A stretch of DNA of 64,000 nucleotides, taken from Saprospiraceae bacterium. GTDB lineage: Bacteria; Bacteroidota; Bacteroidia; Chitinophagales; Saprospiraceae. Of this stretch, positions 1 to 41,927 are shown piece by piece. Within the stretch, counting starts at the first letter, position 1. Each line of letters starts with the position of its first letter. Where the stretch lies: the NCBI GenBank assembly GCA_029262995.1, contig JAJCYH010000018.1:52326-116325 (forward strand), written 5' to 3'. Below the pieces are notes generated by a model, which made no database searches, was not told the DNA's origin, and saw only the letters and a list, made by a program, of their open reading frames with translations. The position numbers and the translations under genes were made by a program.

Positions 1-1359
1 ACAAGGGGCTACATAATCACAAAGAACTGATGTTTCATTTGGTTGATAGTGAACTGCAACCTTAGTTCCTACTTTTGATAATGCTTCAGCAAACTTAGAA
101 GCACTTGATGAATCGTATGCAGGATTTGTATCCAACATCACAACTGCATCAATTCTTCCACCGTTCATTTCGTTGATCAAAGCCTCAAGGTTTTTCTCAT
201 TACCCTGTCTCTGCATTGAAGCATCACTCATGGAAATGGTTGAACCATAATTGCCAAGAATTTCATTCATGTGATTAACCAATACTTGTTCGTATGGATT
301 ATTCGAAGCGCTTATGACTAAAGAATTTCCGCTTGCTGATTTAAGCTCTTGAGCTACTCTATCCAAAGCGCTTTTTGCTTTATCATTAAGGGCAGCTGAA
401 GAACTACCATCACTTAATATACCATGCAAGTAGGCAATTGCTTGCCCAAGTTCTGATGGCTTAATCAATACTCTATTATCTGCATTAGAACCTGTCATTG
501 ACATGTGACTCTCCACTTGGATATGTCTTGACATCTTTGGATTGTCCGCATTGACGATTCTATTTTTAGAATAAGCCTTCGCATATTCAACTGGAGATAT
601 CCAAGTACCAAGAAAGTCAGCATTAAAACTTACTATAACATCTGCCTTATCAAAATGATACGAAGGTATTACGGCTTGACCATAACTCATTTCATTAGCA
701 TCCAATATTGCAGCAGATGACACAGGATCATAACTAATCCATTGTGATGACGGATAGGCACTAATAAATTCTTCAATTGCATTTTTTGCTGTTGGACTAA
801 GTATGGTATTTGATACCAAACGCACATTCTTTGCAGTTGACAATGCCTCCTTAACTTCTGTATCTAGTTTATTCCAAGAAATGGCTTCAAAACCATTTTC
901 TGATTTCTTCAATGGTGAACGATATCTGTTGGTATCATATAAACTAAGCACAGATGCTTGCACCCTTGCTGAAGTCCCTCCTTTAGTTATAGAAGAAAGG
1001 TCGTTACCTTCCACTTTAATAGGACGACCTTCTCTACATTTTACTAAAATAGGGCAATAGTCTCCACCAACTACATAACTAGAAGCGTAGTATGTTGCTA
1101 CACCAGGTACTATTTCATCTGGCTTAATAACATAAGGTATTGCTCTTTTAATAGGAATATCGCAACCAGCAGCTACCGTTGCTGCGCCCAATCCAAAGCC
1201 TAAGAACTTAAGAAAGTCCCTACGGTTAGATTGTGTATAATCTAATCCTTCACTGTTTTCAAGAATATCTCCACCAGCAAATTCTTGCTCGACAGTTTCT
1301 AGAAATGCTTCATCTCTAACAAGATCTTTCTCTCCAATCCAAATAGAATTCTTATCCAT
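1..1359 (-). CDS. actB: Alternative Complex III ActB-like molybdopterin-family oxidoreductase subunit, N-terminal part (3' end runs off the window)
   Basis: Absent from the ORF track because it is open to position 1. Reverse translation from the ATG at 1359 gives MDKNSIWIGEKDL...SNRRDFLKFLGFGLGAATVAAGC, a twin-arginine signal, followed by molybdopterin-oxidoreductase-like sequence. It lies 23 nt downstream of the multihaem actA-like gene, the usual ACIII order. Confidence 0.75.
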   Translation of the reverse strand, partial: MDKNSIWIGEKDLVRDEAFLETVEQEFAGGDILENSEGLDYTQSNRRDFLKFLGFGLGAATVAAGCDIPIKRAIPYVIKPDEIVPGVATYYASSYVVGGDYCPILVKCREGRPIKVEGNDLSSITKGGTSARVQASVLSLYDTNRYRSPLKKSENGFEAISWNKLDTEVKEALSTAKNVRLVSNTILSPTAKNAIEEFISAYPSSQWISYDPVSSAAILDANEMSYGQAVIPSYHFDKADVIVSFNADFLGTWISPVEYAKAYSKNRIVNADNPKMSRHIQVESHMSMTGSNADNRVLIKPSELGQAIAYLHGILSDGSSSAALNDKAKSALDRVAQELKSASGNSLVISASNNPYEQVLVNHMNEILGNYGSTISMSDASMQRQGNEKNLEALINEMNGGRIDAVVMLDTNPAYDSSSASKFAEALSKVGTKVAVHYQPNETSVLCDYVAPC

Positions 1360-1382
1360 TATAATTTAGGTTCAATTTGCAA

Positions 1383-2783
1383 TTAATAGTGACATTTTTG
1401 ACATTCAAGACCACCGATCTCTTCTACAGTAACCTTATCACGGCTACCTGATGCCATTTCATCATGATATAATTTATAACTATCGTAATATTCATTTCCT
1501 TCGAATTGAACTTCAGTTTGTCTGTGACAATTGATACACCATCCCATTGACAAAGGAGAATACTGTTCAAGTACTTTCATCTCTTCAACTTTCCCATGAC
1601 ATTGCTGACACTCTACTTTACCAACTGAGACATGCTGTTCATGATTAAAGTAAACATGATCCGGAAGGTTATGAATTCTAATCCACTCAATAGGACCTTG
1701 AATTTTTTGCTTTTGATCATTGGTTAATGAATTTACAATACCATCCCATTGTTCTTCTACAACTCTTTCTCCTTCGTTATCCAACTCTGCAAGCCCTTTG
1801 GTTTCTAAGTAAGTATCTCCTATCCATTTAGCATAAATAGCTTTCAACTCTTCATTGCCAAGTTCATCGTAGTTGTCTATGTAGGTGTTATCTGTTGGAT
1901 TGTAACCAATAGAAGCAAATATCTTTGTTAATTCAGCAGTTCCATATTCAGAACCTACGGTAATAGCTCTGTGACAGTTCATACATGTATTTGCTGACGG
2001 AATTACAGAATGCTTAGATCTTCTGGCACCATCATGACAGTATTGGCAATCTATTTTATTTAATCCTGCATGTGTTTCGTGAGAAAACTTAATTGGTTGC
2101 TCAGGGGCATATCCTTCTTGTCTTCCAAGTGATACTGAATTATTTACCGTGGTGTAAGCACCTAAAATAACTGTTGCAAATAACAAAAAAGTAATTATAC
2201 CTCTGCTTGTAAGTGTTTGCCACAAAGATTTTCTTTGGAATGTTCGTCCTTCTTTCTCAGCTGAAATAACATTAAGGTTGGAAATGACCCTAGCTAAAGT
2301 AATAGAAAGGATAAAAAGAAAAGCAAATAAAAGGTAATACATCCAATCTGGCGTTTGCCTTTCTTGCACAACAACTGCTGTAGATCCCACAGTAGTTCCA
2401 CCAGCACCATTGACATATACGTCATCAATGTATAATAATATCGATTCTATGTTATCGTTTGTCAAGTTTGGAAATGACTGCATAGCCACTTTATTCCATT
2501 CATTGTAAACCTCTACCGCTCGAGGATGTTCGTCAGCAACCAACTGCTGAGAATTCTTGATCCATGCATACAAATCTTCACGATCATAATCTGCCCAACG
2601 TTCCTCTGCACCACCTAGGGCAGGTCCTGTTGCTTTGGATTTCATGTTTTTGGCATGACACTGGGCACAATTGATACGAAACAAATCTTTACCCTCATCA
2701 ATCGTAGGTTCTGCCAACAAAGAGAACGAAAAGAAAATGAGTGTCAGAGATAGGAAAAATGATTTAAAAGAATATCTGGTCAT
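1383..2783 (-). CDS. actA: Multihaem cytochrome c, ActA-like (five CxxCH in the C-terminal part) with an extra N-terminal monohaem cytochrome c domain
   Basis: Six CxxCH motifs are present: CAQCH, CQYCH, CMNCH, CQQCH, CINCH, CQKCH. There is a signal peptide (MTRYSFKSFFLSLTLIFFSFSLLA) and two internal hydrophobic helices. I chose the start at Met-20 of the track ORF (2783) because a TAAATTTG -7 box at 2838..2845 overlaps the longer start. Confidence 0.75.
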   Translation of the reverse strand: MTRYSFKSFFLSLTLIFFSFSLLAEPTIDEGKDLFRINCAQCHAKNMKSKATGPALGGAEERWADYDREDLYAWIKNSQQLVADEHPRAVEVYNEWNKVAMQSFPNLTNDNIESILLYIDDVYVNGAGGTTVGSTAVVVQERQTPDWMYYLLFAFLFILSITLARVISNLNVISAEKEGRTFQRKSLWQTLTSRGIITFLLFATVILGAYTTVNNSVSLGRQEGYAPEQPIKFSHETHAGLNKIDCQYCHDGARRSKHSVIPSANTCMNCHRAITVGSEYGTAELTKIFASIGYNPTDNTYIDNYDELGNEELKAIYAKWIGDTYLETKGLAELDNEGERVVEEQWDGIVNSLTNDQKQKIQGPIEWIRIHNLPDHVYFNHEQHVSVGKVECQQCHGKVEEMKVLEQYSPLSMGWCINCHRQTEVQFEGNEYYDSYKLYHDEMASGSRDKVTVEEIGGLECQKCHY

Positions 2784-2837
2784 TCTTATTTTTTTTATGT
2801 AGTTGGACTCTTCAAAAATCAAGCTCAATAATTGCTG

Positions 2838-2845
2838 CAAATTTA
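2838..2845 (-). promoter_or_regulatory. Candidate Bacteroidota -7 promoter box (TAAATTTG, matches TAnnTTTG) for actA
   Basis: The reverse complement of caaattta is taaatttg, about 55 nt upstream of the preferred actA ATG. Confidence 0.35.
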
Positions 2846-2887
2846 TAATTTCAACAATTGATTTAACAATAAATATGTAGGTACTTA

Positions 2888-2912
2888 ATTATTTAGATAT
2901 CGTCTAAATAAT
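2888..2912. promoter_or_regulatory. Perfect 10-5-10 inverted repeat ATTATTTAGA-tatcg-TCTAAATAAT, copy 1 of a motif shared with the nqr upstream region
   Basis: Read directly. It matches 30688..30712 at 21 of 25 positions. It lies between the thyA stop and the actA promoter region. Confidence 0.5.
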
Positions 2913-3706
2913 CAAACAGAAACCCTAGCCTTTATATGGGGATGCGGGTCGTAATCCTTCAACTCAAAGTCATCATATATAAAGTCAAAAATCCTATTTA
3001 CTTTAGGGTTAATATCCATAATTGGCAATGGTCTTGGAGACCTGCTTAATTGCAATTCAGCTTGCTCCAAATGGTCTGAATAAAGGTGCACATCACCAAA
3101 AGTGTGTACAAAATCACCGTATTCCAAACCACAAACTTTCGCCATCATCATTGTAAGCAAAGCATAGGAAGCAATATTAAAAGGTACGCCAAGAAAAGTA
3201 TCTGCTGATCTTTGATACAATTGACAAGACAATTTGCCTTCCGATACATAGAATTGGAACAAGCAATGACAAGGCGTAAGGGCCATATCATCCAATTCAC
3301 CAGCATTCCATGCATTAACTACAATTCGCCTTGAATCAGGATTATTTTTAATCAACTCAACAGCTCTGCTGATTTGATCAATTGTTGAACCATCTGGTTT
3401 GGTCCATGATCGCCACTGTTTACCATATACAGGGCCTAATTCACCATTCTCATCAGCCCATTCATTCCATATTCGAACACCATTATCCTGCAAATACTTC
3501 ACATTGGTATCTCCCCTTAGAAACCATAACAGTTCATGGACTATAGATTTGAGATGTAATTTCTTGGTAGTTAGCATTGGAAATCCTTCAGAAAGGTCAA
3601 ATCTCATCTGATAACCAAAGCAACTAAACGTTCCAGTGCCGGTTCTGTCCTGCTTCTTTACACCATTGCTTAATATATGTCTTAGTAAATCGTGGTACTG
3701 CTTCAA
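2912..3706 (-). CDS. thyA: Thymidylate synthase
   Basis: Classic ThyA sequence: [26 protein letters not shown]...[24 protein letters not shown]...[10 protein letters not shown]...[20 protein letters not shown]. Confidence 0.95.
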
Positions 3707-3924: not shown

Positions 3925-5544
3925 ATGTATTTTAAGAACAGAATTTCAATCATTTTAATGGGACTACTGTTGCCATTAACTTCTTTTGCTAAAGGACTTG
4001 ATGAAACTATTGATGATTGGTTTAGTCCAATTGCAACGGCTTGGGAGTCCTTGGTATTTACGCCAATCCCAATAGCTGGACTAAGTGTTCCTTTTGTCGT
4101 CATATTGCTTGTAGTTGGTGCAGGGTTTTTCACTTTCTATTTCAAATTCGTAAATATTAGGAAATTTCCATTGGCCATTAGTGTCGTAAGAGGCAAATAT
4201 GATAGCATAGAAGGTGGTGAAGAACCAATCACGACTGACACTGTAAATGTAGTAGATGGGGATATCGTTGATACAATACGTATAGAAGGGAAACAAGGAG
4301 AAGTAAGTCACTTTCAAGCATTAGCAACTGCAGTTTCAGGAACTGTAGGTTTGGGTAATATTGCAGGTGTTGCAGTAGCTATTGCTATAGGTGGTCCTGG
4401 TGCTACATTCTGGATGATTATTTGTGGGCTTTTGGGAATGTCTTCAAAATTTGTGGAATGTACCTTAGGTGTTAAATATAGAGATGTTGATAAAGATGGA
4501 ACTGTGTATGGTGGTCCAATGTATTATCTATCAAAAGGCTTAAAAGAACGCGGCTTTGAAAAAATCGGAAAAGTCCTTGCGGTAACTTTTGCTGTTTTGT
4601 GCGTAGGTGCTTCATTCGGAGGAGGAAATGCATTTCAGTCCAATCAGGCAACCGTGCAATTAATATCAATGTTGGGTCTTTCAGGTGGGGCGATCAAGAC
4701 CGTAATTGGATTTATTTTGGCGACATTGGTTGGTCTTGTTATCCTTGGAGGAATCAAGAGTATTGCAAAAGTTACGGAGAAGATTGTGCCGTTTATGGCA
4801 GCCATTTATGTAGCAGCTTGTCTCTTTATAATAATTTCAAATTTTGGTTTTGTTGATGATGCTTTTAGATTGATCATCTCAGGAGCTTTTACACCGGCAG
4901 CCGGTTTTGGTGGATTACTAGGTGTAATAATTGTTGGGTTCCAAAGAGCAGCTTTCTCAAATGAAGCTGGTGCCGGGTCCGCGGCGATCGCACATTCCGC
5001 TGTAAGAACAAGATTTCCTGCCAGTGAAGGAATCGTAGCTTTGATGGAGCCTTTCATTGATACCATAGTCATTTGTACAATGACTGCCTTGGTTATCATC
5101 ATGTTCAATAGTGATGGTGCATTTACCTATGGTAATCTAGACGTAAATAATAATATAATCCTAAACGCTACAGGAGAATCTTTTGGTGGAGTTGATCTTA
5201 CGAGTATGGCGTTCGCAGATACATTACCTTGGTTTCCGTATGTACTAACCGTTGCAATTATTCTCTTTGCATTTTCTACAATGATTTCTTGGTCTTATTA
5301 TGGCATGCAATCATGGAAGTTCTTATTTGGTAAAGGCAAGAAAGCCGATATCGTATTTAAGGTACTATTTCTTGCATTTGTCGTGATTGGATCAGCAGCT
5401 AAACTAGATGCGGTTATTAAGTTTTCTGATGCCATGATACTTGCATTAGTATTTCCAAATATGATTGGATTATTCTTTTTATATCCAAAAGTTAAGGAAG
5501 AGCTTGATAAATATTTAGCTGCCATTAATGGAAAAAATTCATAA
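3925..5544 (+). CDS. Alanine/glycine:cation symporter (AGCS) family transporter
   Basis: Polytopic membrane protein with AGCS-like blocks GTVGLGNIAGVAVAIAIGGPGATFWM and FSNEAGAGSAAIAHSA. Confidence 0.85.
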   Translation: MYFKNRISIILMGLLLPLTSFAKGLDETIDDWFSPIATAWESLVFTPIPIAGLSVPFVVILLVVGAGFFTFYFKFVNIRKFPLAISVVRGKYDSIEGGEEPITTDTVNVVDGDIVDTIRIEGKQGEVSHFQALATAVSGTVGLGNIAGVAVAIAIGGPGATFWMIICGLLGMSSKFVECTLGVKYRDVDKDGTVYGGPMYYLSKGLKERGFEKIGKVLAVTFAVLCVGASFGGGNAFQSNQATVQLISMLGLSGGAIKTVIGFILATLVGLVILGGIKSIAKVTEKIVPFMAAIYVAACLFIIISNFGFVDDAFRLIISGAFTPAAGFGGLLGVIIVGFQRAAFSNEAGAGSAAIAHSAVRTRFPASEGIVALMEPFIDTIVICTMTALVIIMFNSDGAFTYGNLDVNNNIILNATGESFGGVDLTSMAFADTLPWFPYVLTVAIILFAFSTMISWSYYGMQSWKFLFGKGKKADIVFKVLFLAFVVIGSAAKLDAVIKFSDAMILALVFPNMIGLFFLYPKVKEELDKYLAAINGKNS

Positions 5545-18921: not shown

Positions 18922-18950
18922 TTGATTGAAAGTTGTCTGATCAGACATAT

Positions 18951-19505
18951 ATGAAAAATGAATGGCATGAGATAAGAATTCGATGTGCCAAAAACGAAAG
19001 GAAAGCACAAGAGCTGCTTTACCGTCATTTTTTTCCTGTAATGGAAAGAATGGTACTTCGCTTTACAAACGATGAAGATCAGATCATTGATATACTAAAT
19101 AATGCATTCTTGAAAGTCTTTAAGAAGATAGAATCTTTTCAAGGGAATGGTTCTTTTGAAGGTTGGATAAGAAAGATCGTTTATCACTCTATTAGTGATT
19201 ATTTCAGAAGTCGTCAAAAGGATTTGAAATTTTTGATTTACGAAAAGGAATTTTCCAAAGAACCCACACAAGCAGAAGATCAAAAGTTATACTATCAAGA
19301 TCTAATGAAGCTTATAAATAATCTGCCTGAAATGCATATGCAAGTTTTTCACTTATATGCAATTGAAGGTTATAACAATAAAGAAATAAGTGTCAAATTG
19401 AACATCAATCACAACACATGTAGATGGTATTTGGCAGAGGCAAGAAAATTACTCCAAGTAGAGTACAATAAATATTACTTAAAAGATTTTAATGAAACAG
19501 CCTAA
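18951..19505 (+). CDS. RNA polymerase ECF-type sigma-70 factor
   Basis: Region 2 (ILNNAFLKVFKKIESFQGNGSFEGWIRKIVYHSISDYFR) and region 4 (MQVFHLYAIEGYNNKEISVKLNINHNTCRWYLAEARKLL). The track ORF starts at a TTG at 18933. I prefer the ATG at 18951 because 18934..18947 is a perfect palindrome. Confidence 0.85.
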   Translation: MKNEWHEIRIRCAKNERKAQELLYRHFFPVMERMVLRFTNDEDQIIDILNNAFLKVFKKIESFQGNGSFEGWIRKIVYHSISDYFRSRQKDLKFLIYEKEFSKEPTQAEDQKLYYQDLMKLINNLPEMHMQVFHLYAIEGYNNKEISVKLNINHNTCRWYLAEARKLLQVEYNKYYLKDFNETA

Positions 19506-20763
19506 CGCAACCTACAGCAGAACAGATCGAGGATGGCAAAATATGGAAGCCATGCTCGAAAAAGAAATGCCGCCTAAGAAAAGAAGGTACTTGATAATTA
19601 TTTGGCTTCTAGCGGGTATTGCTATTTTATGGTCTACTAATTTCTTTATCCAGCCTATCAATGATGAGCATCTTGCGGATTCAACGCAAAGCATAATTAG
19701 TGAAAACCAATCACCTATCACTTTAGCGGAACATGACAATGTAGAAGTGGGAATGGATAAAAGAACCGTTACGACAGCATTGATTAACGAATCAAAAATT
19801 GAAGGTAACATTTCTCCATCCGTTAGTAACTCTAATTCCACAATAAACAAGTCGATAATAAACATCAATGATAAACAAGCAATTAAATCTTCTCAATATG
19901 AATCAATAGTTGAAAAAAATGAAATATCAAGGAATACTGAGAGTAAAAATAAATTTATAGTGCTTAACGCAAAAAAGTATAATAATACATCATCAAATAC
20001 CTCAACTAATACGCCTATAATTTACCAAGCTGAGGCAAAGGATAATATTAATGAACTGCCTTTGATCAACAAACGTGAATTTAACTTGATTTACAATGAA
20101 TATTTACCAGCTATTTCGATAGCGTTAGCCGAAAGCCATATCAGAGTTGAAGATTCGTTTGATACGGGTATTCACATTGGTGCTCTGATTGGAGGAGAAT
20201 ATCTTATCGACTTTAAGTCACCTGGAGTTATGGGGGGAGTTATTATCGAAAAACCAATTAGTAAATCACTGTCGATTGGATCGCAGTTAGCCTATTCAAT
20301 TAATAAAAGAACCATAACAGATGAAGATGGTTTATTAAATCAGGATGTAGATATACCAACGGTAGAAGATACTAATACTGGAACATTATCGACAATCGAA
20401 TCCATTTCAGTATTGAAATCCAGTACCGGAAATCTAAATGCATGGATGACCAATCTGTATGCTAAATATAAATTCAATAAGGGGTTATCATTAAAGTTAA
20501 GTGTAGGATTTGACTATTATCTTGATCATCTGAGATTGATCAATGAAAGCTTTAATGAAATAAATTTAAGTTCAGAAAATCTTTATCAGATCGAAAAAGG
20601 AAATAAAATTATTCCTATAACATCATTAGGCCTAGAATACAATATACATAAAGGCATTTCAGTATTTGCAGAATATAGAGTTGCTTTAGAAGATTACTAT
20701 ACCTTCGAATTAGAAAAGATAAACACAACAAAAGCATCATTAGGTTTAACTTTTAGTTTATAA
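19492..20763 (+). CDS. Membrane protein coupled to the ECF sigma factor (anti-sigma-like N-terminus, Asn/Ser-rich linker, beta-barrel-like C-terminus)
   Basis: Overlaps the sigma gene by 14 nt. It has one TM helix (YLIIIWLLAGIAILWSTNFFI). The C-terminal 200 aa or so look like an outer-membrane beta-barrel (ends SLGLTFSL). Confidence 0.45.
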   Translation: MKQPNATYSRTDRGWQNMEAMLEKEMPPKKRRYLIIIWLLAGIAILWSTNFFIQPINDEHLADSTQSIISENQSPITLAEHDNVEVGMDKRTVTTALINESKIEGNISPSVSNSNSTINKSIININDKQAIKSSQYESIVEKNEISRNTESKNKFIVLNAKKYNNTSSNTSTNTPIIYQAEAKDNINELPLINKREFNLIYNEYLPAISIALAESHIRVEDSFDTGIHIGALIGGEYLIDFKSPGVMGGVIIEKPISKSLSIGSQLAYSINKRTITDEDGLLNQDVDIPTVEDTNTGTLSTIESISVLKSSTGNLNAWMTNLYAKYKFNKGLSLKLSVGFDYYLDHLRLINESFNEINLSSENLYQIEKGNKIIPITSLGLEYNIHKGISVFAEYRVALEDYYTFELEKINTTKASLGLTFSL

Positions 20764-24360: not shown

Positions 24361-25686
24361 CTATCCTCCAAAATCATCGAAGGCGATATTTTCTTCAGGT
24401 ACACCAAGTTCATCCAATGCTTTAATTACTGAAGCATTCATAGCTGGAGGGCCACAGAAATAATATTCTACTTCTTCTGGTTCTTCATGTTTTGCCAAAT
24501 ATTGTTGAACACAAACCGGCATAATGAACCCTTTAAAACCATCACCAGGAGCATCAATATCCTCTTTTACTTGCCAGTTATCCTCTTCTAATGGATTATC
24601 TAAGGCTACATAAAATTTAAAGTTTGGAAATTCCTTCTCTATCTGTCTGAATTCATCAATGTAGAATAGTTCTCTTTTAGTTCTTCCACCATACCAAAAC
24701 GATACTTTACGATCTGTAATTTTTAAAGTATGAAACATATGGAACAAATGAGATCTCAATGGAGCCATTCCAGCACCACCACCAATATAAACCATTTCCT
24801 TTTTGGTGTCTTTAATAAAGAATTCACCATATGGACCAGATATAACACATTTATCACCAGGCTTAAGTCCAAATACATAAGATGAACATACTCCAGGATT
24901 TACATCTAACCATCCATTCTTAGTTCTATCCCAAGGCGGTGTGGCAATACGAATGTTTAGCTTAACTATATTACCTTCAGCGGGGTGGTTGGCCATTGAA
25001 TAAGCTCTAAATTGTGGCTCATCATTAACCATTTTTAGATTCCATAGATTATAATCATCCCATTCTGATTTAAACTTTTTGGGATCATCATGATAATCAG
25101 GATGCGCTGTAATATCAATATCTTTAAAATTTACGGTTACCAGCGGTACATCAATTTGTATATAACCACCTGCTTTAAAATCAAGTTCTTCTCCTTCCGG
25201 TAGTCTTACAACAAATTCTTTGATGAAGGAAGCTACATTATAATTGGCGATGACTTCACATTCCCATTTCTTAATGCCAAATACTTCTTCAGGAACAGAG
25301 ATTTGCATGTTTTCTCTAACTTTTACCTGACATGCTAAACGCTTACCTTCTGCAGCTTCTTTTCTGGTAAGGTGGTTCATTTCAGTTGGAAGAACATCTC
25401 CACCTCCTGAATAAACATGACATTCACACATAGCACAGGTTCCACCACCACCACAAGCAGACGGAAGGAAAAGATTATTCTCAGATAGAGCTCCAAGCAA
25501 ATTTACACCAGGTTGTACTCTAAGGGGATTTTCTTCATCTTCGTTAACAATAATAAATACATCACCTTGTGGTACCAGTTTTTTACGCGCGTAAATCAAC
25601 ATCATTGAAAGCGCTAGAATCACTCCACAAAAAACAATAAGTGCGAATAAAACCGGCATCAATTCCAAAAGAACAATAATCGTCAT
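24361..25686 (-). CDS. nqrF: Na+-translocating NADH:quinone oxidoreductase subunit F
   Basis: N-terminal TM helix, 2Fe-2S ferredoxin motif [23 protein letters not shown]-binding domain, and the NqrF-typical C-terminal end DDFGG. Confidence 0.95.
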
Positions 25687-25710
25687 TTCTTTAAATTGTC
25701 GTTATTTAAA

Positions 25711-26310
25711 CTAAAATGCTGCAGGATCAATTCCCATTAATCCCATAAATGCCATTCCCATTAATCCTGTTAATAAAAAGGCCATTCCTAATCCCCTTAA
25801 TGCAGGAGGAACATTAGAATACTTAATTTTTTCTCTTATCGCAGCGATAGCAACTATAGCTAAAAACCATCCAAATCCACCTCCTAACCCGAAGGCAACA
25901 GATTCAGTAAAATTATACTCCTTAGATACCATAAAAAGTGACCCGCCCAGAATAGCACAGTTTACTGTAATTAATGGAAGGAAAATTCCAAGAGAATTAT
26001 ATAAAGCTGGAGAATATTTCTCAACAACCATTTCAACCAACTGCACCATTGAAGCGATAACAGCGATAAAAAGAATAAACCTTAGAAAAGTTAAATCTGT
26101 TCCAAAAATGCCATTCTCTGACAACAACACAGTATTAATCAACCAGTTAATCGGCATCGTAATACCAAGAACAAAGATTACAGCTAGTCCAAGACCAAAG
26201 GCTGTTTTCACTGTTTTAGAAACGGCCAAATAAGAACACATTCCAAGAAAATAAGACAAAGCAAGATTTTCTATGAATGCGGATTTTATAAAAATATTTA
26301 CTAATTCCAT
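25711..26310 (-). CDS. nqrE: Na+-NQR subunit E
   Basis: 199-aa polytopic protein at the position between nqrD and nqrF, with NqrE/RnfA-like sequence. Confidence 0.9.
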
Positions 26311-26321
26311 TTTATATTTCT

Positions 26322-27017
26322 TTAGGATACGTCAACCAATTTAGGATTCCAAGCTCTATGTGCCCAGATTAATATAGCGATCACAAACATTGCCGATGGA
26401 AATAAAACCATCAAGTTATTGCTTTGATACCATCCAAATAATGTACTTTCCGTTGTGTTGATAGCATATTCTGCAGATGCACCAATAATTTTAGCACCAT
26501 AGATTTCCCCTTTACCAAAGAACTCTCTGAAAAAAGCAACGATTATTAAGATAATTCCATAACCAATACCGTTTCCTAGACCATCCAAGGCAGATTCATA
26601 AGGTCTGTTAGCCATAGCAAAAGCTTCAAGTCTTCCCATAACTATACAGTTGGTAATAATCAATCCAATGAACACAGATAATTGCTTATAGCTTTCAAAA
26701 GCATAAGCTTTTAAAACCAACTCCACAATTGTTACAAGAGATGCAATAATTATCAATTGAACGATCATCCTAACCTGCTTGGGAATTGACTTCCTGAACA
26801 TGGAAGTAATGGCATTGGAGAATATACAAACAAAGATAACAGCAATAGCCATAACCAAAGCATTCTTCATTCCCGTTGTAACAGCAAGAGCCGAGCATAT
26901 TCCTAAAACCTGTACTGTGATAGGATTGTCATCGTTTATTGGATCTGTCAACAACTTTCTTTCCTTCTTTCCGAAGGAAATTGTTCTTTTCTTTTCAACT
27001 ACCGCAGTATCTGCCAT
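26322..27017 (-). CDS. nqrD: Na+-NQR subunit D
   Basis: Polytopic protein with NqrD/RnfE-like sequence ([17 protein letters not shown]), in the operon position. Confidence 0.9.
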
Positions 27018-27019
27018 AA

Positions 27020-27763
27020 TTAACTTTTAATTGTTTTCAAATACGGTTCGTAGGCTTTTAAACCACTTTCTAACATATCGCTTACACCATCCGCTGTAAT
27101 AGTAGCACCAGAAATTCCATCCACTTCATGGACAGGATCTTTTGCGCCTCCTTTCCTGACTGTTACAGACATAAATTTATCTCCATCATAGATCTTTTTG
27201 CCAATAAATTGACGTACCCATGATTTGTTGTCTTTAATTTCAGCACCCAATCCAGGAGTCTCTCCTTTATGATCAAAGGATACTCCAGCTATAGTACTCA
27301 AGTCAGATTCAAGAGCAATATTCCCCCATATCGCATCCCAAAGACCCTTACCTCTAGTATATAAAATATAATACACTGATCCGTCAGATTTGGTAAATTT
27401 ATAAACAGGTCTTAATCTATCTGCAGCTGGTTTTTTCTGTTCTCTTGAAAGATCAAGATTCTCTGCTTTACCTTCTTTAATACCCCTTTCAATAAGCTCT
27501 TCGGTACTGTATACCTTGCCAGATTGATCAACAACTACTTGCTCTATTTGCTCATCAAATATTTTTTGTACATCATTATCTTTCAAAGTAGCAAAATCAC
27601 CTGCTATATGATTTGAAACTGCAGCTAAGGTTGCTTTTTTTGAATAAATAGATTCGTTTTGATCGTGTTTTGATTTTAGTCCATTTTGCAATGCAGCCAG
27701 AATAAGGGCAACAATTGAAGTCATTATCAATACAAAGCGAATTATTGAAGTTGTACTATGCAT
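27020..27763 (-). CDS. nqrC: Na+-NQR subunit C
   Basis: Single N-terminal TM helix and an FMN-attachment motif region (GISGATITADGV), in the operon position. Confidence 0.9.
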   Translation of the reverse strand: MHSTTSIIRFVLIMTSIVALILAALQNGLKSKHDQNESIYSKKATLAAVSNHIAGDFATLKDNDVQKIFDEQIEQVVVDQSGKVYSTEELIERGIKEGKAENLDLSREQKKPAADRLRPVYKFTKSDGSVYYILYTRGKGLWDAIWGNIALESDLSTIAGVSFDHKGETPGLGAEIKDNKSWVRQFIGKKIYDGDKFMSVTVRKGGAKDPVHEVDGISGATITADGVSDMLESGLKAYEPYLKTIKS

Positions 27764-29003
27764 GCGATAATCTTTTTTTCATGTTTGATTCAAGAACAAA
27801 ATGATCAATTAATGGAGCCATTGTATTCAAGAATAATATAGCCAACATCCATCCTTCAGGATAGGCTGGGTTAAATACTCTAATCAATAAACCTAAAGCA
27901 CCAATCATAAAACCATAGATCCATTTTCCTGTATTGGTTGATGCTGCTGTTACAGGGTCAGTTGCCATAAATGCCATTGCAAAGAAGAAACTACCCATAT
28001 AAAAGTGATAATACCATGGTACACTCATAAATGCAGTTGCATCCCAGGCATTAAAAATATATCCCATAAAAGCTGCCCCTAAAACCATGCTTAGCATAAT
28101 TCTCCAACTGGCAATACCAGTCAACAATAACATAGCAGCTCCTATTAAAATTAAAGGCTTAGAAGTTTCTCCAATAGATCCTGGAATAGTTCCCCACCAC
28201 ATATGAGCAACTGTAAATTGCTCTGTAACAGCCTCCCATCCACCTTGATAGGCCAAAGCCAGTGGAGTCGCTCCACTGTACCCATCCGCTATCACCGCAG
28301 TAGAATTAAAGGTATCTAGGTTCATCCAACCAAACAAACTGTTAAAAACATTGTGCGCCCATCCATAATCTACAGCAGCACCAGGTGCTATCTCTGTAAA
28401 TCCAGCAACCCAAGCACCATCTCCAGAAATTGATGTTGGATAAGCAAAGAATACAAACACTCTAGCCAATAATGCCACATTCCAAATGTTCATTCCTGTA
28501 CCTCCAAAAGCTTCTTTTCCAAGAATAACTGCAAAAACAACAGAAACACAAAGAATCCAAATCGGAATATCAGGAGGCATAATCAATGGAATAAGAGCAC
28601 CAGAAACCAAAAATCCTTCTTCAACGGCATGTCCTTTCTTTGCAGCAAACCAGAATTCAATACCCAAACCAACAACGTGGGTCCAGATGAATATTGGAAG
28701 CATCTTGATCAGTCCATGACCTAATTTCAAATGAAATCCTTCAAGGAATCCTGGGTACATCCCAACCGCATCAAAATGTTGATGACCAATGTTGTATGTA
28801 CCAAATAAATAACAAAGTTGAAGGGCGATTACAACAAATACCATTGTTCTCTTTAAATCCATTCCATCACGGATATGAACTCCTCCTTTAGTTGTTGTAT
28901 TTGGTGTAAATGCAAATGTGAAAAATGCATCGTACGCCGTATGTAAAAACGGACTATTCTTTTTGTCCGGTTCAATCTTTTTAAATAAATCTACTAATCC
29001 CAT
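27756..29003 (-). CDS. nqrB: Na+-NQR subunit B
   Basis: Polytopic protein with NqrB/RnfD-like sequence including YSGATPLA (FMN site), in the operon position. Confidence 0.9.
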   Translation of the reverse strand: MGLVDLFKKIEPDKKNSPFLHTAYDAFFTFAFTPNTTTKGGVHIRDGMDLKRTMVFVVIALQLCYLFGTYNIGHQHFDAVGMYPGFLEGFHLKLGHGLIKMLPIFIWTHVVGLGIEFWFAAKKGHAVEEGFLVSGALIPLIMPPDIPIWILCVSVVFAVILGKEAFGGTGMNIWNVALLARVFVFFAYPTSISGDGAWVAGFTEIAPGAAVDYGWAHNVFNSLFGWMNLDTFNSTAVIADGYSGATPLALAYQGGWEAVTEQFTVAHMWWGTIPGSIGETSKPLILIGAAMLLLTGIASWRIMLSMVLGAAFMGYIFNAWDATAFMSVPWYYHFYMGSFFFAMAFMATDPVTAASTNTGKWIYGFMIGALGLLIRVFNPAYPEGWMLAILFLNTMAPLIDHFVLESNMKKRLSHA

Positions 29004-29021
29004 TATAAACTCTTAAATGTA

Positions 29022-30563
29022 TTATGCTTGTTCACGCATCATTTCTAACCCATCTCTAAGGATAGACTGCAATGGCATCTTTGACGTACAACTAAATTCA
29101 GCTAAAGCCACATCTTCTTCACTCAACTCATTAATTCCTAATGCCTCCATTCTTTCAATATCTCCAATCATTATTGCCTTCATTAAATGTTGAGGATAAA
29201 TATCCATTGGCAATACCTTTTCATATTGACCTGTCATTACAAAGGCTCTTAATTCACCATGTGTATTGGTATCTACTTCAAATCTATGATTCTTAAATAA
29301 GAAGTTTGGAAAAGTCCCCGAAAAACTAGGTCTTGGTTTGATCGGCAACAACCAACCAAACAATTCATAATAATCTCCTTCCTTAATAGCTGTTATCATA
29401 TTGTACTTTACGCCAAGGAAATCATCCTCTCCACTTGTTTCGCCCGAAAGAACATTACCAAGAATTATTCTTGATTCTACATCGTCGTTAAGTCTCCCCT
29501 TTAAAAGGTCACTAACGCTAGCTCCAGCCTTTGTTCTCACTAGGATAGGCTCAATGATTTGCCCCCCAGTTATTCCAATAATTCTAGTTGTGTCAAATAT
29601 CCCTACTCGAAATAGTTTACCAATAACCAATAGATCTTCAATTTTTAGTGTCCAAACTGTAGCATTACCTCTTATCGGAGCGATGTGATGAATTTGAACG
29701 CCAACATTTCCAGCAGGATGCTGTCCAGCAAACCAATGCTTTTCTACGCCTTTTGCTTTTAGCAACACATCATGTGGCTGATTTCCTTCTCTTCCGTCTA
29801 AACCCAAATATACTTTACCATCTGTAAGCTTATTCAACACATCAATAGCCATTTGGAAATCTTCAGATCTTTCATTAAGAATAAATTGACTTCCTATTGC
29901 CAATGGTGCAGTATCAAAACATGAAATAAAGATATTCTCTGGTGAATTTTCTGGATCAGCAATCACATCAAAAGGTCTTTGAAGGATCATTGGCCACACA
30001 CCCGAAGCTTGAAGAAATGAAGATATTTCTTCCCTGCTTGAATGCAGTGAAGGAACATCAAACTTTTTATATTGCTGTTCTCTGTCAGCAAGTATTACCA
30101 GATGAGATATAGACCTTTTAGCACCCCTCCTGATTTCTACCAATTCTCCACTTACTGGTGAAACATATTTAATGTTTGGGTTTGATTTATCAAAAAATAA
30201 TGCATCACCAGCCAGAACTTCACTACCCTCTTCAACTTCAACTTTAGGAATAGGAGCAATGCCTCTGAAATCTGTTGGCTTGACTCCAAATCTGCTTACT
30301 TCTGCATCTACGATTGTGGTTCCTGGCATTCCAGATAAAAGAATATCACGTCCTTTTGTTAATCTGTGAAACCTAGATTTGTCGACATAAGGAGGAGTAG
30401 GTTTTGCAAATAGTTCGGAAAGTTTAGGATAAATACTCAAATTCTTTTTCGATGTATCTATTCCTTGTTTTTGGGCCTCGATCTGGATTAAATTATCTGA
30501 AATTGAAAAAACAGAAGCCAATACCAGAAGGACAACTATGATAATTAAGGCAGCAATTAGCAT
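29022..30563 (-). CDS. nqrA: Na+-NQR subunit A with an N-terminal hydrophobic extension of about 64 aa
   Basis: NqrA-like sequence starts near HRLTKGRDILLSG...VSPVSGELVEIRRGAKR. Upstream of it the only in-frame start I can find is the ATG at 30563, which adds MLIAALIIIVVLLVLASVFSI. Confidence 0.85.
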   Translation of the reverse strand: MLIAALIIIVVLLVLASVFSISDNLIQIEAQKQGIDTSKKNLSIYPKLSELFAKPTPPYVDKSRFHRLTKGRDILLSGMPGTTIVDAEVSRFGVKPTDFRGIAPIPKVEVEEGSEVLAGDALFFDKSNPNIKYVSPVSGELVEIRRGAKRSISHLVILADREQQYKKFDVPSLHSSREEISSFLQASGVWPMILQRPFDVIADPENSPENIFISCFDTAPLAIGSQFILNERSEDFQMAIDVLNKLTDGKVYLGLDGREGNQPHDVLLKAKGVEKHWFAGQHPAGNVGVQIHHIAPIRGNATVWTLKIEDLLVIGKLFRVGIFDTTRIIGITGGQIIEPILVRTKAGASVSDLLKGRLNDDVESRIILGNVLSGETSGEDDFLGVKYNMITAIKEGDYYELFGWLLPIKPRPSFSGTFPNFLFKNHRFEVDTNTHGELRAFVMTGQYEKVLPMDIYPQHLMKAIMIGDIERMEALGINELSEEDVALAEFSCTSKMPLQSILRDGLEMMREQA

Positions 30564-30627
30564 TACTCAATTGTTTGATTCACTTAAGCTTGCTTCAGAG
30601 CAATTAAAACAGCCCCGAAAATCAGCG

Positions 30628-30635
30628 CAAATATA
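30628..30635 (-). promoter_or_regulatory. Candidate -7 box TATATTTG upstream of nqrA
   Basis: The reverse complement of caaatata matches TAnnTTTG, 65 nt upstream of the nqrA ATG. Confidence 0.35.
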
Positions 30636-30687: not shown

Positions 30688-30712
30688 ATTATTTAGATAT
30701 TATCTAAACAAG
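30688..30712. promoter_or_regulatory. Copy 2 of the palindromic motif (ATTATTTAGATATTATCTAAACAAG; core TTTAGATA-t-TATCTAAA)
   Basis: Read directly. 8-1-8 perfect inverted repeat, 21/25 identical to 2888..2912. It lies between the terminator of the upstream gene and the nqrA -7 box. Confidence 0.5.
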
Positions 30713-30769: not shown

Positions 30770-30798
30770 AAAAAAAAGCCGCATGGTAAACATGCAGC
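30770..30798 (-). terminator. Rho-independent terminator of the 1743-aa gene
   Basis: The minus strand reads GCTGCATG-tttac-CATGCGGC followed by TTTTTTTT, 25 nt after the stop codon. Confidence 0.8.
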
Positions 30799-30822
30799 TT
30801 CTAGATTCAATAGAATTCAATA

Positions 30823-33800
30823 CTAACGTATTTGTATCATTTTACGACTATCTGTTCCATAATCAGTCTCTATTTTGTAGTACATAACTCCCGTAGAATT
30901 AAGTTGTTCCCTTGAAAGTCTAAGTGTATGCATTCCTGCATCATATCTCGATTTGTCCTGTAGTAAAACTCTTCCTGTTACATCAAAAACAGTGAACTTT
31001 ACATTAGAACTTTCTGGTAATCTGAATCTGATATCTGTTGTTTCTAGGAATGGGTTAGGAACGTTCTGGAAAAGAACAAATTCTTTTGATTCCTGACCTC
31101 TGAATTCGATGCTCATATCCATGATTCTAAGATCACTATCATAAGCCTCCATTTTTGTAAGATTTGAACTGATATACAATTCATCACTCAACTGAGAACT
31201 TTCCTTAACATCGAATATAAGTTCGAATAATACCTCATCAGAATCTACATTGCTTTCGTTAATTGTATTCCAACTCAAACTAACCATACCTTCATTTAGA
31301 TATGCAGTTCCAAGGTTTTCTTCGTTTAAGTCAATTGAAGAAGATTCAACACCTACAAATTCTAATCTTTCTGTATCAAAGTTGAAAGTATTCTGGAATC
31401 CAACAACTTCTTCAATATTCTTGGCGAAGAATGGTATTCTTACTCTTTCACCTCTTACCAATGATACTTCATCCGTCACTAAATCTAAGTTTGCAGGAGA
31501 TCTTCTTTCCCCTTCTCTTTCAATGCCTTGGAACTTAAGATCAGCAGAAGCATTGACATCACCAATTTTCACAGCAACAAAATTCTGATTGTTCATATCT
31601 CCTTGGAGATTGAAAATATCAATCGTTTCACTGTAAGGGAATGGCGACTGTACGTCAAGGAATGCCTGACCTTGATCAGGGAATCTCCAAGCCTGCTGCC
31701 CATTAGGAAACTCTTCAGTAATTCCTAATATCAACTTACGTATCGTCAATAAATCTAATGCACTCAAACTTCCACTATTGTCAGCATCAGCTGCAATCAA
31801 TTTGTATGGAGAATTTAATGAACTCAATCCTAGTATATGTCTCTGGATCAAAACTAAATCCAATGTACTTACACCGTTCAACGGATCATCATCCATTCTA
31901 CCACTAATTTCATAATCTGTTGATGTTGGAATGTCTTCAAAAGCATATCTACCATTTGCTTCCGTAACATCTACATTTGTGAAGTCAACATTCATATTTC
32001 TAATGGTAACTGAAACGTTTTCTAAATTCTCGCTAAATTCAGTTTTAACATTACCAGCAATTTTAGAACCTGCAATATCAGGACATAAATCACTTTGGTT
32101 GTCCTGTAAGTTCAACTGAACGATACAGAAATCTCTGTTTCCATATTCATCCTCATAATATACATTCAAAGGAAGAACCTGAGATATTCCATTTAAAATA
32201 TCATCACAATCAAAGATTAAGAAGTAAGTCTTTGTATTTCCATCAAGGAAATAAACATCAAGAGAATTAAAGTTATTACAATCAGCATTACCTGTGTAAT
32301 TGTCAAATCCTCCCAAGTCAAAGTCAGAAGCCCATATCTCTGCCGAACCATTGGTATTCATCGTTGCAGTAACAACCGAACCAAGGCAATAAGGCGTAGG
32401 TGCTTTTCTGTCTATTACATTTACCCTCGTTGTTGTTTCAAAGACATTTCCACAATGATCTTCAGCATACCAGTAAATTGTGCTTAGTCCAAAGGGATAC
32501 GCACCATTGGCATCCATGCTTGTAATCGTAGAAGAGAAACTTCCATCAGGGAATTGTATTCTATAGTTATACGTGATATCCTGAGTATCAAACATATCTG
32601 TACAAGTATCTGTAATATCAGCTACCAATGCAGAAGTGTCAATAACAGTCAGACAACTCTCAGTTTTAGATTCAATGGTCAAGTTACCTGTAACATTAAT
32701 ATCAGGTGGCGTATTATCATCAATCTTAATCACCTGTATATGTGTTCTTGTTGCCTGAGCAATACTTGTTCTTTCAGCCAAACACCAATCAATTACAGTC
32801 CATTCTCTTAAGATTTTCAAACATGCATCTTGCACTTCAGGAAATATTGTATCATCCCATCCTATTGCAATATCATTGCAAATACTAGAGTTTACGATAA
32901 TATAATCTGCTCCATTCTGGAAAGGCAGGTTATAAGGCTCTAAGCCAGCGATGTCAGAACAATTGCTCACTATATAATCTTGCGGCCATCTACTAACCTG
33001 AAAGTTATTAGGATTAGAAACGGACGCATTTGTGTATGAAAATGTCTGAGTAAAATCATCAAGAACATCATTACATTGATCCAATACTTGATATCTAACC
33101 GATCTTTGACCAACCCCACATCCTTGTGCTTCAAAAGGAGATCTAGCCTGCGATTCATTTACTACAACCACTTTTAAGTTTAACTCTGGATTTTGTAAAT
33201 TTCTGTTAAAACAGTTATCTACCCAAACAAATTCTGTCAATGATTGATCAATAATTGAATTGATATCTACAGGACTCTCAGTACAATCAAAAGTGAATGA
33301 ACGCTGAGGTGTCTGTACCTCCTGAGGAGGTAGATTATCTTGTAATTCTACTTCCACTTGACAAGTATTTGTATTACCTGCAGCATCTGTAACTCTTAAA
33401 TGCATTATTCTGTTCGGATTTTGGCAACTACATCCAAATTCATAGGTTGCACGGTAAGCAAAATTACTTTCGTTTGCACCTTTGATTTCATAAGATACTA
33501 CACCACAGTTATCCCATGATCCGTTATCTAATGATTCTGCATGTACTTTAGCAATTCCTGTCTCTCCAAAAGCAGCTACTGTATATTCTATACATACCGG
33601 TATTGGCTTTGTTTTATCAACAACATCAACCTCGGTAAAGCACTCTCCTGTATTTCCACATTCATCGGTCACTACCATCTTGATCCATGCTCTTCTTCCT
33701 ACAGGAATGCCTCTAATTTCATAAGGAATTCCAGAGCTAAATACATCATTAACCTGTCTACCCTGTTCATCATATACGTTTGTTTGAATATATGCTCCAT

Positions 33801-36054: not shown

Positions 36055-36343
36055 GGTTAAAAATTTTTGTGTTCTTACGTTAGTATTTTCTATTCTTCTC
36101 ATTAAAATGAATTAAATATTTTTAGTATTAAAGATTCTATTTTTCATATCTCATTGTTTTTCAGGCTTTTAAGCATTAAGACAATGATATATTCAAAGTT
36201 TTTTTAATTCATAATTTGTATGAGGCAAACATTATACCAAATTGTAATATGATAGTACATGCCATGATTTTCGCAGAATTATTACTCTGATTAGAATTAG
36301 ATTACCCTCAAGAATTAGTAACTTTATTTAAAAGCAAAGGGTC

Positions 36344-37372
36344 TTGACCAATTCTAAAAACAAATGCCTCAGTTGCAGTTTTTCAATTTCAGAAACGGAT
36401 AAATACTGTCCTCAATGCGGATTAGAAACCAAATACAGAAACCTGTCAATCAGATTTCTGATCAAATCATTTTTTGAAGCCTTTTTGAATTTTGATGTCA
36501 AAATCTTTCATAGTATGAGAGATATTTGGGTCCCCAATAAGATCACCAAAACATTTTTAGAAGGGAAAAGAGAGTATCATATCCACCCATTTAGATTTTA
36601 TTTTATTTGCCTTATCATATTCTTTACAATGCTTTCTTTTTTGACAAAAAATATAGAGTTTAATGAATTCAATCTTAACGAAATTGTAGCTGAATACGAG
36701 TTCTATCAAGAGTTTGACACGCTGAGTCAGGAATATGTAGCTAACTGTGACCCAGGCATTATCGACAGTATAAAAACCAAACTCTATAGAGATGCAGACA
36801 AACTTGAAAGAGATACATTTTTTGATGCAAAAATTTTTGGATCCGATCTCAGTAAATATGGCATTTCTACTTTAGATGCTTTCAAATTAGAGAATGAGGA
36901 TATGTTTGAAAAATATAAGGTAGTAAGCAGAAAAGATCAATATATCCTGAGTCAATTTAAAAGAGTAGCCACGCATCCTGAATCTGCTATAAGGTTTTTT
37001 ATTGGAAATCTGATTTGGGGATTGATCCTTTTAACTATAATGATTGCCGCTGTATTAAAGCTGTTATATATAAGACATGAAAGCTATTATATTGAACACT
37101 TACTGCATGTATCCAATGTGCATTGCCTCATTCTGCTATTGATTAGCTTTGTAATGCTGCTTCATCTGATTACTGCATTAGAATTATTTCCAGAAATGAT
37201 ATTCTTTTCTCTACTAGCGGGAATATTATATTTTCTTATCTCTATTAAAAGCTACTATGGTGAAAAGCTTATAAAAACATTAGGAAAGCTATTGATTATA
37301 AATGTCTTTTATTTTATCTGTGTTGGAATTATCATGACGATCATTGGCGTTTTTTCACTTATGTTCTTTTAA
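36344..37372 (+). CDS. Zinc-ribbon membrane protein (DUF3667-like)
   Basis: N-terminal CLSC...CPQCG zinc ribbon, FLEGKREYHIHPFRFYF block, and several C-terminal TM helices. TTG start. Confidence 0.55.
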   Translation: MTNSKNKCLSCSFSISETDKYCPQCGLETKYRNLSIRFLIKSFFEAFLNFDVKIFHSMRDIWVPNKITKTFLEGKREYHIHPFRFYFICLIIFFTMLSFLTKNIEFNEFNLNEIVAEYEFYQEFDTLSQEYVANCDPGIIDSIKTKLYRDADKLERDTFFDAKIFGSDLSKYGISTLDAFKLENEDMFEKYKVVSRKDQYILSQFKRVATHPESAIRFFIGNLIWGLILLTIMIAAVLKLLYIRHESYYIEHLLHVSNVHCLILLLISFVMLLHLITALELFPEMIFFSLLAGILYFLISIKSYYGEKLIKTLGKLLIINVFYFICVGIIMTIIGVFSLMFF

Positions 37373-37410: not shown

Positions 37411-37418
37411 GTATATTT
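37411..37418 (+). promoter_or_regulatory. Candidate -7 box TATATTTG upstream of the MerR-family gene
   Basis: Matches TAnnTTTG. It overlaps the TTG start of the track ORF, which argues for the ATG at 37441. Confidence 0.3.
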
Positions 37419-37440
37419 GATTAACGCATATCTAATCGGC

Positions 37441-37800
37441 ATGATAAACCCTGATGAATTACAAAAACGATATTACAAAATTGGCGAAGTTGCCAAAATG
37501 TTTGATGTAGCTCCTTCTCTAATCAGGTTTTGGGAAGAAGAGTTTACGCAATTAAAGCCTGCTAAGACTAAATCAGGAATTAGAAAATTTCAGAAAGATG
37601 ACATTCTGATCCTTAACAGGATTTATGCACTTGTAAAAATTCAGGGATTCAAATTAAAAGGAGCAAAACTTGCTTTGCGCAAAAAAAGTACAGCAGAAAA
37701 TAAATCAGCAGGTCCCAACAAGCAAACTTTGAATAAAATAAAAAGGGAACTAATTGATCTTAGAAACGAAATGACCAAGTTAAAAGAGCATATTAAATAG
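37441..37800 (+). CDS. MerR-family transcriptional regulator (small, coiled-coil tail)
   Basis: HTH YYKIGEVAKMFDVAPSLIRFWEEEF is a typical MerR N-terminus. Confidence 0.8.
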   Translation: MINPDELQKRYYKIGEVAKMFDVAPSLIRFWEEEFTQLKPAKTKSGIRKFQKDDILILNRIYALVKIQGFKLKGAKLALRKKSTAENKSAGPNKQTLNKIKRELIDLRNEMTKLKEHIK

Positions 37801-41639: not shown

Positions 41640-41927
41640 GTATTTGTTCTAATTAGATTGAAGATCAAAACACCATCTTTAACTTGGCAAGTTTTATACC
41701 ATCTTATTATATAACTTTCTTCACTAAAAGAAAAGTTATCATTAAGATTTAACAAGACTCAGAGTTTTTATAATAATAGTCAGAAAAATTACTAAATAAC
41801 ATAGAAATATGTCTGCACCAACAATTCTTGCTTCAAAACCGGTCATTCTAGCCTGCGAAAATAATGCTTACTCCTGAGATTTGTAATTATTCTTGAATTG
41901 AAGCACATTTGCATTGCAAATATAGAA

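Follow-up and report, generated by a model that had tools for sequence, protein, structure and literature searches.

The operator of the iron regulator Fur has been described for the Flavobacteriia in Riemerella anatipestifer, where a set of genes whose expression changes on deletion of fur yielded the Fur box ATTTAGAATTATTCTAAAT, with support from gel shifts with Fur (PMC5609570). The box ATTTAGAATTATCCTAAAT in the R. anatipestifer rhuB promoter is bound by Fur with Mn2+ at a dissociation constant of 4.3 nM (PMC10986502). Here, a stretch of 64,000 nucleotides from a Saprospiraceae bacterium (assembly GCA_029262995.1, contig JAJCYH010000018.1, positions 52,326 to 116,325; referred to in its entirety as the window) was analysed for two related palindromes that are located upstream of the operons for alternative complex III (ACIII) and for NQR. 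Both palindromes are probably a Fur-family operator, with the housekeeping Fur as the likeliest binding protein, coupling ACIII and NQR to iron and doing so probably by activation from upstream.

Delany et al. in 2004 reportedly identified Neisseria meningitidis nuoA, norB and pan1 as direct targets of Fur activation, nuoA standing for a respiratory NADH dehydrogenase operon. Class-I sites of the CRP type are centred at -61.5, -71.5 and -82.5. Metal-bound Fur activates hilD in Salmonella from a site upstream of the promoter (PMC3089636). Respiratory and tricarboxylic acid cycle enzymes that contain iron also follow iron via Fur through the iron-sparing small RNAs that Fur represses, namely RyhB in E. 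coli, PrrF in Pseudomonas and IsrR in Staphylococcus aureus (PMC11879123).

The first palindrome (site 1, 2888..2912) reads ATTATTTAGATATCGTCTAAATAAT and is a perfect 10-5-10 inverted repeat with the arms ATTATTTAGA-TATCG-TCTAAATAAT, and the second (site 2, 30688..30712) reads ATTATTTAGATATTATCTAAACAAG with the layout ATTATTTAGA-TATTA-TCTAAACAAG, no strand being assigned to either. The sequence readout agreed with an initial annotation of this DNA on the positions and sequences of both 25-mers, on their same orientation, on the 21 of 25 bases in common (mismatches at positions 14, 15, 22 and 25) and on the shared core TTTAGA-N5-TCTAAA. The exact core occurred twice in the 64 kb against a mean of 0.02 in dinucleotide-preserving shuffles, and two or more copies were present in none of 100 shuffles. 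Matches to the core with up to two mismatches were not enriched (13 seen, 11.3 expected), and the signal in the window is therefore that of two full sites and not of half-sites. A 29-bit matrix built from related nqrA loci only marked just these two sites at 10 bits or more, with 31.9 bits for site 1 and 28.5 bits for site 2, which upholds the earlier statement that the window holds no other full site. The composition of the window (35% G+C) and the chance rate of the two-mismatch matches are what could be said for a fortuitous similarity in AT-rich intergenic DNA, but with two exact cores where 0.02 were expected, and with conservation at both operons in dozens of species whose flanks cannot be aligned, this explanation has next to no probability.

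Site 1 precedes the ACIII operon (1..2783, minus strand), which is represented by actA and the 5' part of actB before actB runs off the window, and site 2 precedes nqrABCDEF (24361..30563, minus strand, assigned by Pfam and NCBIfam). The location of the sites upstream of actA-actB and nqrA-F, as initially annotated, is supported by Pfam and NCBIfam, with the qualification that site 1 shares one base with the stop codon of thyA (2912-3706, minus strand) and so is also directly downstream of a gene.

Conservation was assessed in 80 genome loci encoding NqrA relatives (L001-L080, 1.34 Mb) and 80 metagenome loci encoding ActA relatives (0.73 Mb), together 2.07 Mb of DNA made up of repeated neighbourhoods of nqrA and actA. 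The pattern TTATTTAGA-N5-TCTAAATAA was found at one place upstream of nqrA in the related loci. Sufficient upstream DNA and an NqrA identity of 50% or more were available for 66 loci, each from a Saprospiraceae species. In these, the 14-base core ATTTAGA-N5-TCTAAAT was present upstream of nqrA with up to one mismatch in 33 and with up to two in 45, against one of 188 equal-sized control windows from the same loci. A matrix of the nqrA sites gave 43 matches at 15 bits or more in the 1.34 Mb, all of them upstream of nqrA and one per locus. The matrix built from nqrA only was then applied to the actA loci. Of the 33 loci that have an ActA at least 49% identical and enough upstream DNA, about 30 showed a single site ahead of actA, and the matrix marked nothing beyond these sites in the 0.73 Mb. 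The initial annotation had named random scatter and lack of conservation upstream of orthologous operons as the signs of a spurious motif. Conservation was found at both operons, and every match to the core with up to one mismatch in the 2.07 Mb was upstream of nqrA or actA.

The flanks of the site showed 28-30% pairwise identity and 0.06-0.2 bits per position, compared with 0.16-0.47 bits in the 5-bp spacer and about 1.67 bits in the arms, a value inflated by the selection of sites by pattern, so that the unbiased measures are the locus fractions relative to control windows and the transfer of the matrix from nqrA to actA. The arms were kept in sequence without covariation and the spacer was variable, which argues for recognition by a dimeric protein and not for an RNA stem. 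The site consensus in the Saprospiraceae conserves only the outer arms and the flanking TT/AA. Judged from the sequence, the palindromes are one conserved cis-regulatory operator common to the ACIII and NQR operons. Conservation thus bears out the shared operator that had been proposed for these respiratory operons. With arms equal or nearly equal to those of a Fur box, the signal is likely to be iron, sensed by a Fur-family protein rather than by a dedicated regulator of the respiratory chain.

Several variations on the site were observed among the relatives. The proximal arm was better conserved than the distal arm overall, and upstream of nqrA in L022, L028, L039 and other loci the promoter-proximal half-site (G)TCTAAAT alone persists at the usual distance, the distal arm having decayed. 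The nqrA site was wholly lost in some lineages, for example L037, L040, L043, L050, L058, L065 and L066. In the actA locus L217 (5758 and 5827) a second box, ATTTGGATGTAATCTAAAT, is located 69 bp upstream of the conserved one, and tandem boxes of this kind occur at some Fur targets.

The 7+7 outer arms ATTTAGA...TCTAAAT agree with the Riemerella consensus in 14 of 14 positions for site 1 and in 13 of 14 for site 2. The suggestion that the operator was undescribed therefore has to be withdrawn, its arms being equal or nearly equal to the published Bacteroidota Fur box (PMC5609570, PMC10986502), and the reported lack of a Fur match holds for the E. coli consensus but not for the Bacteroidota box. 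The absence of a CRP/FNR match was reproduced, the TTTAGA half-site and the 5-bp spacer being unlike TGTGA-N6-TCACA or TTGAT-N4-ATCAA, and a CRP/FNR operator was rejected as the half-sites do not match. The window sites resemble the Riemerella Fur box in being 19-bp inverted repeats from the same phylum with the 7-1-7-like layout of the Fur family, and differ from it in lacking the inner AT-N-AT. They also differ in placement, as the window sites are at about -67 and -77 of respiratory operons whereas the Riemerella boxes are within 100 bp of the start codons of iron and haem uptake genes, where Fur represses.

The box was also found in other classes of the phylum. In a BLAST search of plasmids with the motif, the Bacteroidota matches, all from Cytophagia, fell without exception at promoters of iron or haem uptake genes, either 5-11 nt away from the -7 box or immediately behind it. 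The genes concerned encode a TonB receptor and a PepSY protein in Chondrinema, where one box is identical to the Riemerella consensus and is accompanied by a second, a TonB receptor in Hymenobacter, a TonB receptor-HmuY-DUF4198 arrangement in Fibrella and an ECF sigma-FecR-SusC arrangement in Chondrinema (L283-L286; NZ_CP111059.1, NZ_CP043648.1, CP155474.1 and NZ_CP111045.1, two of the loci having double boxes). These boxes at iron promoters of Cytophagia plasmids indicate that the Fur box is conserved across Bacteroidota classes. Canonical boxes also occurred upstream of more distant actA genes, with a gap to the -7 box of 46 nt in L279 (ATTTAGAATTATTATAAAT) and L278, 45 nt in L237 and 54 nt in L244, and upstream of nqrA in Polaribacter (L077) with a gap of 57 nt. 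The presence of canonical boxes at the same -67 place in distant actA loci argues for one orthologous regulator whose site has drifted at its centre. The best reading of the operator is that it would be of a known kind, namely the Bacteroidota form of the 7-1-7-type box of the Fur family. Its targets ACIII and NQR, its lineage and its strictly conserved, helix-phased upstream placement appear to be new, and no direct report of Fur control of ACIII or NQR in Bacteroidota was found in the literature.

The placement of the operator was examined relative to predicted promoters. The -7 box of Bacteroidota sigma-A promoters, TAnnTTTG, occupies -12 to -5 (PMC9723704). A consensus match, TAAATTTG (2838..2845, minus strand), is the predicted -7 box of actA and lies 45 nt downstream of the operator core, and a TTG 21 nt upstream of it (2867..2869, minus strand) was read from the sequence as a putative -33 element; related actA loci have a block with TTG, attgtt, at the corresponding position. 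The predicted nqrA -7 box, TATATTTG (30628..30635, minus strand), also matches the consensus and lies 55 nt downstream of the core. Among 33 actA loci of the relatives, 30 had the first -7 box 44-47 nt from the core, the value being 45 nt in 18. Among 36 nqrA loci, 34 had it at 54-58 nt, and there the conserved GCGGTGATTTT follows. Given these fixed gaps and the position of the -7 box, the centre of the 19-bp core is predicted to be at about -67 from the actA transcription start for site 1 (core 2891-2909, centre 2900) and at about -77 from the nqrA transcription start for site 2 (core 30691-30709, centre 30700), the nqrA centre ranging from -76 to -79 across relatives. On the predicted starts the actA and nqrA centres differ by 10-11 bp, which is one helical turn, and both operators are wholly upstream of the -33 region at the whole-helical-turn positions that characterise class-I sites.

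Differences between the two promoters were observed as well. The nqrA promoter is conserved past the -7 box as TATMTTTGCGGTGATTTT (30610-30635 in the window, minus strand; nqrA loci L001-L078) and has no clear -33 TTG, and actA keeps its TTG. The nqrA pattern may represent an activator-dependent promoter or the conserved start of a 5' leader.

The same distances bear on whether site 1 could be an RNA hairpin terminator of thyA with an incidental likeness to site 2. The site begins at the thyA stop codon and a 13-bp A/U-rich RNA hairpin is possible (-12.2 kcal/mol, z-score -3.35), but there is no U-tract, each arm has one G-C pair, and a terminator scan was empty at 2700-3000. Site 2 has no folding advantage over shuffled sequence (z -0.9), the real terminator at that location being found at 30774-30802, and the arms do not covary. 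Moreover, only 13 actA loci have thyA as their upstream neighbour, at anything from 6 to 309 bp from the site, against a gap of 45±1 to the actA -7 box, and site 1 therefore belongs to the actA promoter. The terminator reading was rejected as very improbable.

Other regulator families were considered and set aside. The TAG-N7-CTA of the sites formally fits the T-N11-A dyad of a LysR box, which is expected near -65 beside a usually divergent LysR-family gene, but no LysR domain was present in the Pfam-scanned open reading frames of the window, and the genes next to the sites encode ThyA and a surface protein of the type IX secretion (T9SS) class. A MerR-family gene is present in the window (37417-37800, plus strand), but MerR sites are located inside the promoter spacer.

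In the mechanism we propose, a dimeric Fur-family metalloregulator would bind both sites, Fur in Bacteroidota recognising ATTTAGAAT-N-ATTCTAAAT, and metal-loaded Fur would touch RNA polymerase from one helix face in the style of a class-I activator. Transcription of ACIII and NQR would then increase when iron is available and decrease when iron is scarce, and the respiratory chain would thus be coupled to iron status directly, at the level of transcription. Activation is proposed because positions -67 and -77 face the same side of the helix and do not touch the core promoter, which is class-I geometry. We infer that Fur would be the binding protein in the Saprospiraceae, that its effect would be activation rather than repression, and that transcription would start at the predicted positions.

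The closest precedents share some of these features. As in the activation of hilD and of the Neisseria genes, the Fur-type site stands entirely ahead of the core promoter and the gene concerned does not function in iron uptake, although the hilD and Neisseria sites are further upstream or displace a silencer and activation is proposed here from geometry alone. We know of no report of strict helical phasing across many species for the hilD or Neisseria Fur activation sites. Likeness to class-I CRP sites consists of a palindromic dimer site upstream of the core promoter at positions one helical turn apart, but the protein family, the half-site and the Bacteroidota -33/-7 promoter are different, and any contact with the alpha subunit of the polymerase would be hypothetical. 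Control by RyhB, PrrF and IsrR resembles the proposed scheme in that iron-containing enzymes follow iron via Fur; it is indirect and post-transcriptional, whereas here the Fur-type box is directly at the respiratory promoters.

In favour of Fur control is an iron response of ACIII in R. anatipestifer, where expression data cover the ACIII subunit RAYM_00020, which was down-regulated under iron restriction and had lower expression in the fur mutant (PMC5609570 Table 2). A number of observations weigh against activation by Fur, beginning with this same gene, which was still iron-dependent in the fur mutant (-3.47) and was not listed as changed in iron-replete medium (PMC5609570). ACIII in R. anatipestifer is thus iron-dependent without fur, a misfit to simple activation by holo-Fur. 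None of the four inner positions of the canonical AT-N-AT was matched in either window site, and the T that precedes TCTAAAT in the canonical half ATTCTAAAT was present in none of 37 Saprospiraceae nqrA sites; this difference could reflect a paralogue of other specificity. NQR is cheap in iron and ACIII costly, and co-regulation in the same direction is not obvious from iron economy. About one third of the Saprospiraceae nqrA loci have a degenerate site or none. Further copies of the operator near other genes were absent from about 2 Mb of Saprospiraceae DNA (matrix at 12-15 bits, core with up to two mismatches, and canonical 19-mer with up to four mismatches relative to a reversed-sequence control), and the boxes in these repeated neighbourhoods are fewer than might be expected for a global regulator. 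Searches by phmmer with E. coli Fur, B. subtilis PerR and phage gp09 found no Fur-family open reading frame in the 64-kb window or the 2 Mb of related loci. The promoters and transcription starts on which the geometry depends are consensus predictions. A phmmer search of the related loci for iron genes (E. coli Bfr, FeoB, FtnA, Dps and SodB) returned only one SodB-like open reading frame and one GTPase, neither with a box.

Some of these observations would be accommodated by a Fur-family paralogue or other dimeric regulator that responds to haem, peroxide, redox state or some further signal in place of iron and controls a small dedicated respiratory regulon, which is near to the idea of the initial annotation. 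The 7-1-7 boxes of the Fur, PerR and Zur paralogues are set apart by just one or two bases in each half-site, and the inner positions of the Saprospiraceae sites do differ systematically from the canonical box. The confinement of close matches in about 2 Mb to actA and nqrA would suit a dedicated regulon, and the pairing of an iron-cheap with an iron-costly complex fits a respiration signal better than iron economy. PerR boxes have the form NTANAANNATTNTAN (PMC3458967). A paralogue is nevertheless unlikely in our assessment, as the outer 14 positions equal an experimentally supported Fur box and fully canonical Fur boxes occur at the same -67 upstream of distant actA (L278, L279 and L237), and neither the window nor the relatives have a regulator gene linked to one of the operons.

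It is also conceivable that Fur binds the operator and represses, by blocking an upstream promoter element, by polymerisation along the DNA or in its apo form, so that the operons would be down-regulated under plentiful iron or kept low under scarcity. Fur acts mostly as a repressor, iron-uptake promoters have the same box at repressor positions, derepression of nqr under iron limitation would be sensible for an iron-cheap NADH dehydrogenase, and the R. anatipestifer ACIII data do not show simple activation by holo-Fur. Against this, the site never overlaps the -33/-7 core, and its distance is strict with the two operons one helical turn apart, which argues for a face-specific contact with polymerase and not for occlusion. 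In the iron-uptake and phage promoters, only 3-16 nt separate the box from the -7 box instead, with the former overlapping the -33/-7 region in a repressor geometry, and shutting down the haem- and FeS-rich ACIII under plentiful iron would be counter-intuitive. Repression at these operons is accordingly given a low probability, and activation by Fur from upstream is retained as the preferred reading.

The phage promoters were identified in a scan of viral contigs (IMG/VR, L081-L200), in which at least 120 contigs carried the exact 18-base palindrome TTATTTAGA-N5-TCTAAATAA. Most of these viral sites have the centre AT(C/G)AT, giving the 7-1-7-like TTATTTAGAAT-N-ATTCTAAATAA. The sites were intergenic in 116 of 124 cases and within 20 nt of a TAnnTTTG -7 box in 41, compared with 3.7% of random positions, and they precede portal, tail, terminase and other structural genes. 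Three strong boxes were present in the Polaribacter phages Freya and Danklef, the only cultured phages carrying several copies of the box, together with a Fur-family PF01475 protein (gp09) that consists of the DNA-binding domain only; in L281 (NC_062746.1) the positions of the Fur-family protein and boxes are 4082-4510, 6848, 14267 and 22527. The IMG/VR contig L151 likewise has a box and a Fur-family protein (822-1244 and 3615). The Fur-like protein is not mentioned in the paper that describes the Freya and Danklef phages (PMC8776804). A scan of the viral contigs with an alignment of the phage Fur-like protein recovered only the contig already known, the patterns being too degenerate. Taken more broadly, a tentative and rather doubtful proposal is that in the Saprospiraceae and some other Bacteroidota Fur may serve as a helical-phase-dependent, class-I type activator of ACIII and NQR, and that in parallel the structural promoters of many Bacteroidota phages may carry the Fur box over the -33 element, with truncated Fur homologues in some of these phages.

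The genes of the two operons are all on the minus strand. ActA (1383-2783, ATG at 2783) matches multihaem cytochrome c Pfam families and is QrcA-like by NCBIfam, and the 5' part of actB (1-1359) encodes a Tat-signal molybdopterin-like protein, QrcB-like by NCBIfam, with a TIGR04519 Tat-variant molybdopterin oxidoreductase domain. The nqr operon consists of nqrA (29022-30563; Pfam NQRA_N/NQRA_2nd/NQRA_SLBB and the NCBIfam nqrA equivalog at 486 bits), nqrB (27756-29003; NQR2_RnfD_RnfE), nqrC (27020-27763; FMN_bind), nqrD (26322-27017; Rnf-Nqr), nqrE (25711-26310; Rnf-Nqr) and nqrF (24361-25686; Fer2, FAD and NAD domains). The closest NqrA relative found in a search of a genome collection was 65% identical to the window protein. 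The NqrA relatives, along with T9SS sorting domains, assign the window to the Saprospiraceae. NqrA in the window has a 66-aa N-terminal extension (30366-30563) that contains a transmembrane helix and the conserved motif SDNLIQIEAxKxGID, the canonical NqrA domain beginning at residue 67-69. An extension of 66-100 aa was present in nearly all Saprospiraceae NqrA loci (among L001-L080) and absent from NqrA of Bacteroidales and Polaribacter. The neighbour of site 2 is a 1759-aa cohesin/dockerin T9SS surface protein (30823-36102, minus strand), and the site comes after the canonical terminator of its gene (30774-30802, minus strand).

Elsewhere in the window, on the plus strand, are the haem-synthesis genes hemC and hemD (41898-44097), with no Fur-type box at either, an ECF sigma factor followed by an outer-membrane beta-barrel protein (18933-20763), and an M36 fungalysin with a T9SS tail (50317-53895). 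The MerR-family regulator mentioned above adjoins a DUF3667 gene (36344-37372) and has a MlrA-like best NCBIfam match. It may be related to MliR, a MerR-like activator of iron homeostasis in the flavobacterium Bizionia argentinensis (PMC9478572), and no link between it and the palindromes was found.

The Saprospiraceae are abundant in wastewater, in lakes and in marine particle communities, and to our knowledge nothing is known of the regulation of transcription in this family. A Fur-type box phased on the helix upstream of two main respiratory operons provides a testable model in which iron supply would set respiratory capacity, and would, if correct, clearly exemplify Fur exerting direct control that depends on position at genes not concerned with iron uptake, with respiratory iron sparing wired at the promoters without a small RNA. 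If the phage promoters respond in parallel, phage late transcription would be tied to the iron regulator of the host, or would hijack it, and the box at phage structural-gene promoters together with truncated phage Fur could link iron status to phage development. Since the operator is conserved from the Flavobacteriia to the Cytophagia to the Saprospiraceae, one matrix could be used to map the iron regulons of the Bacteroidota in genomes and metagenomes.

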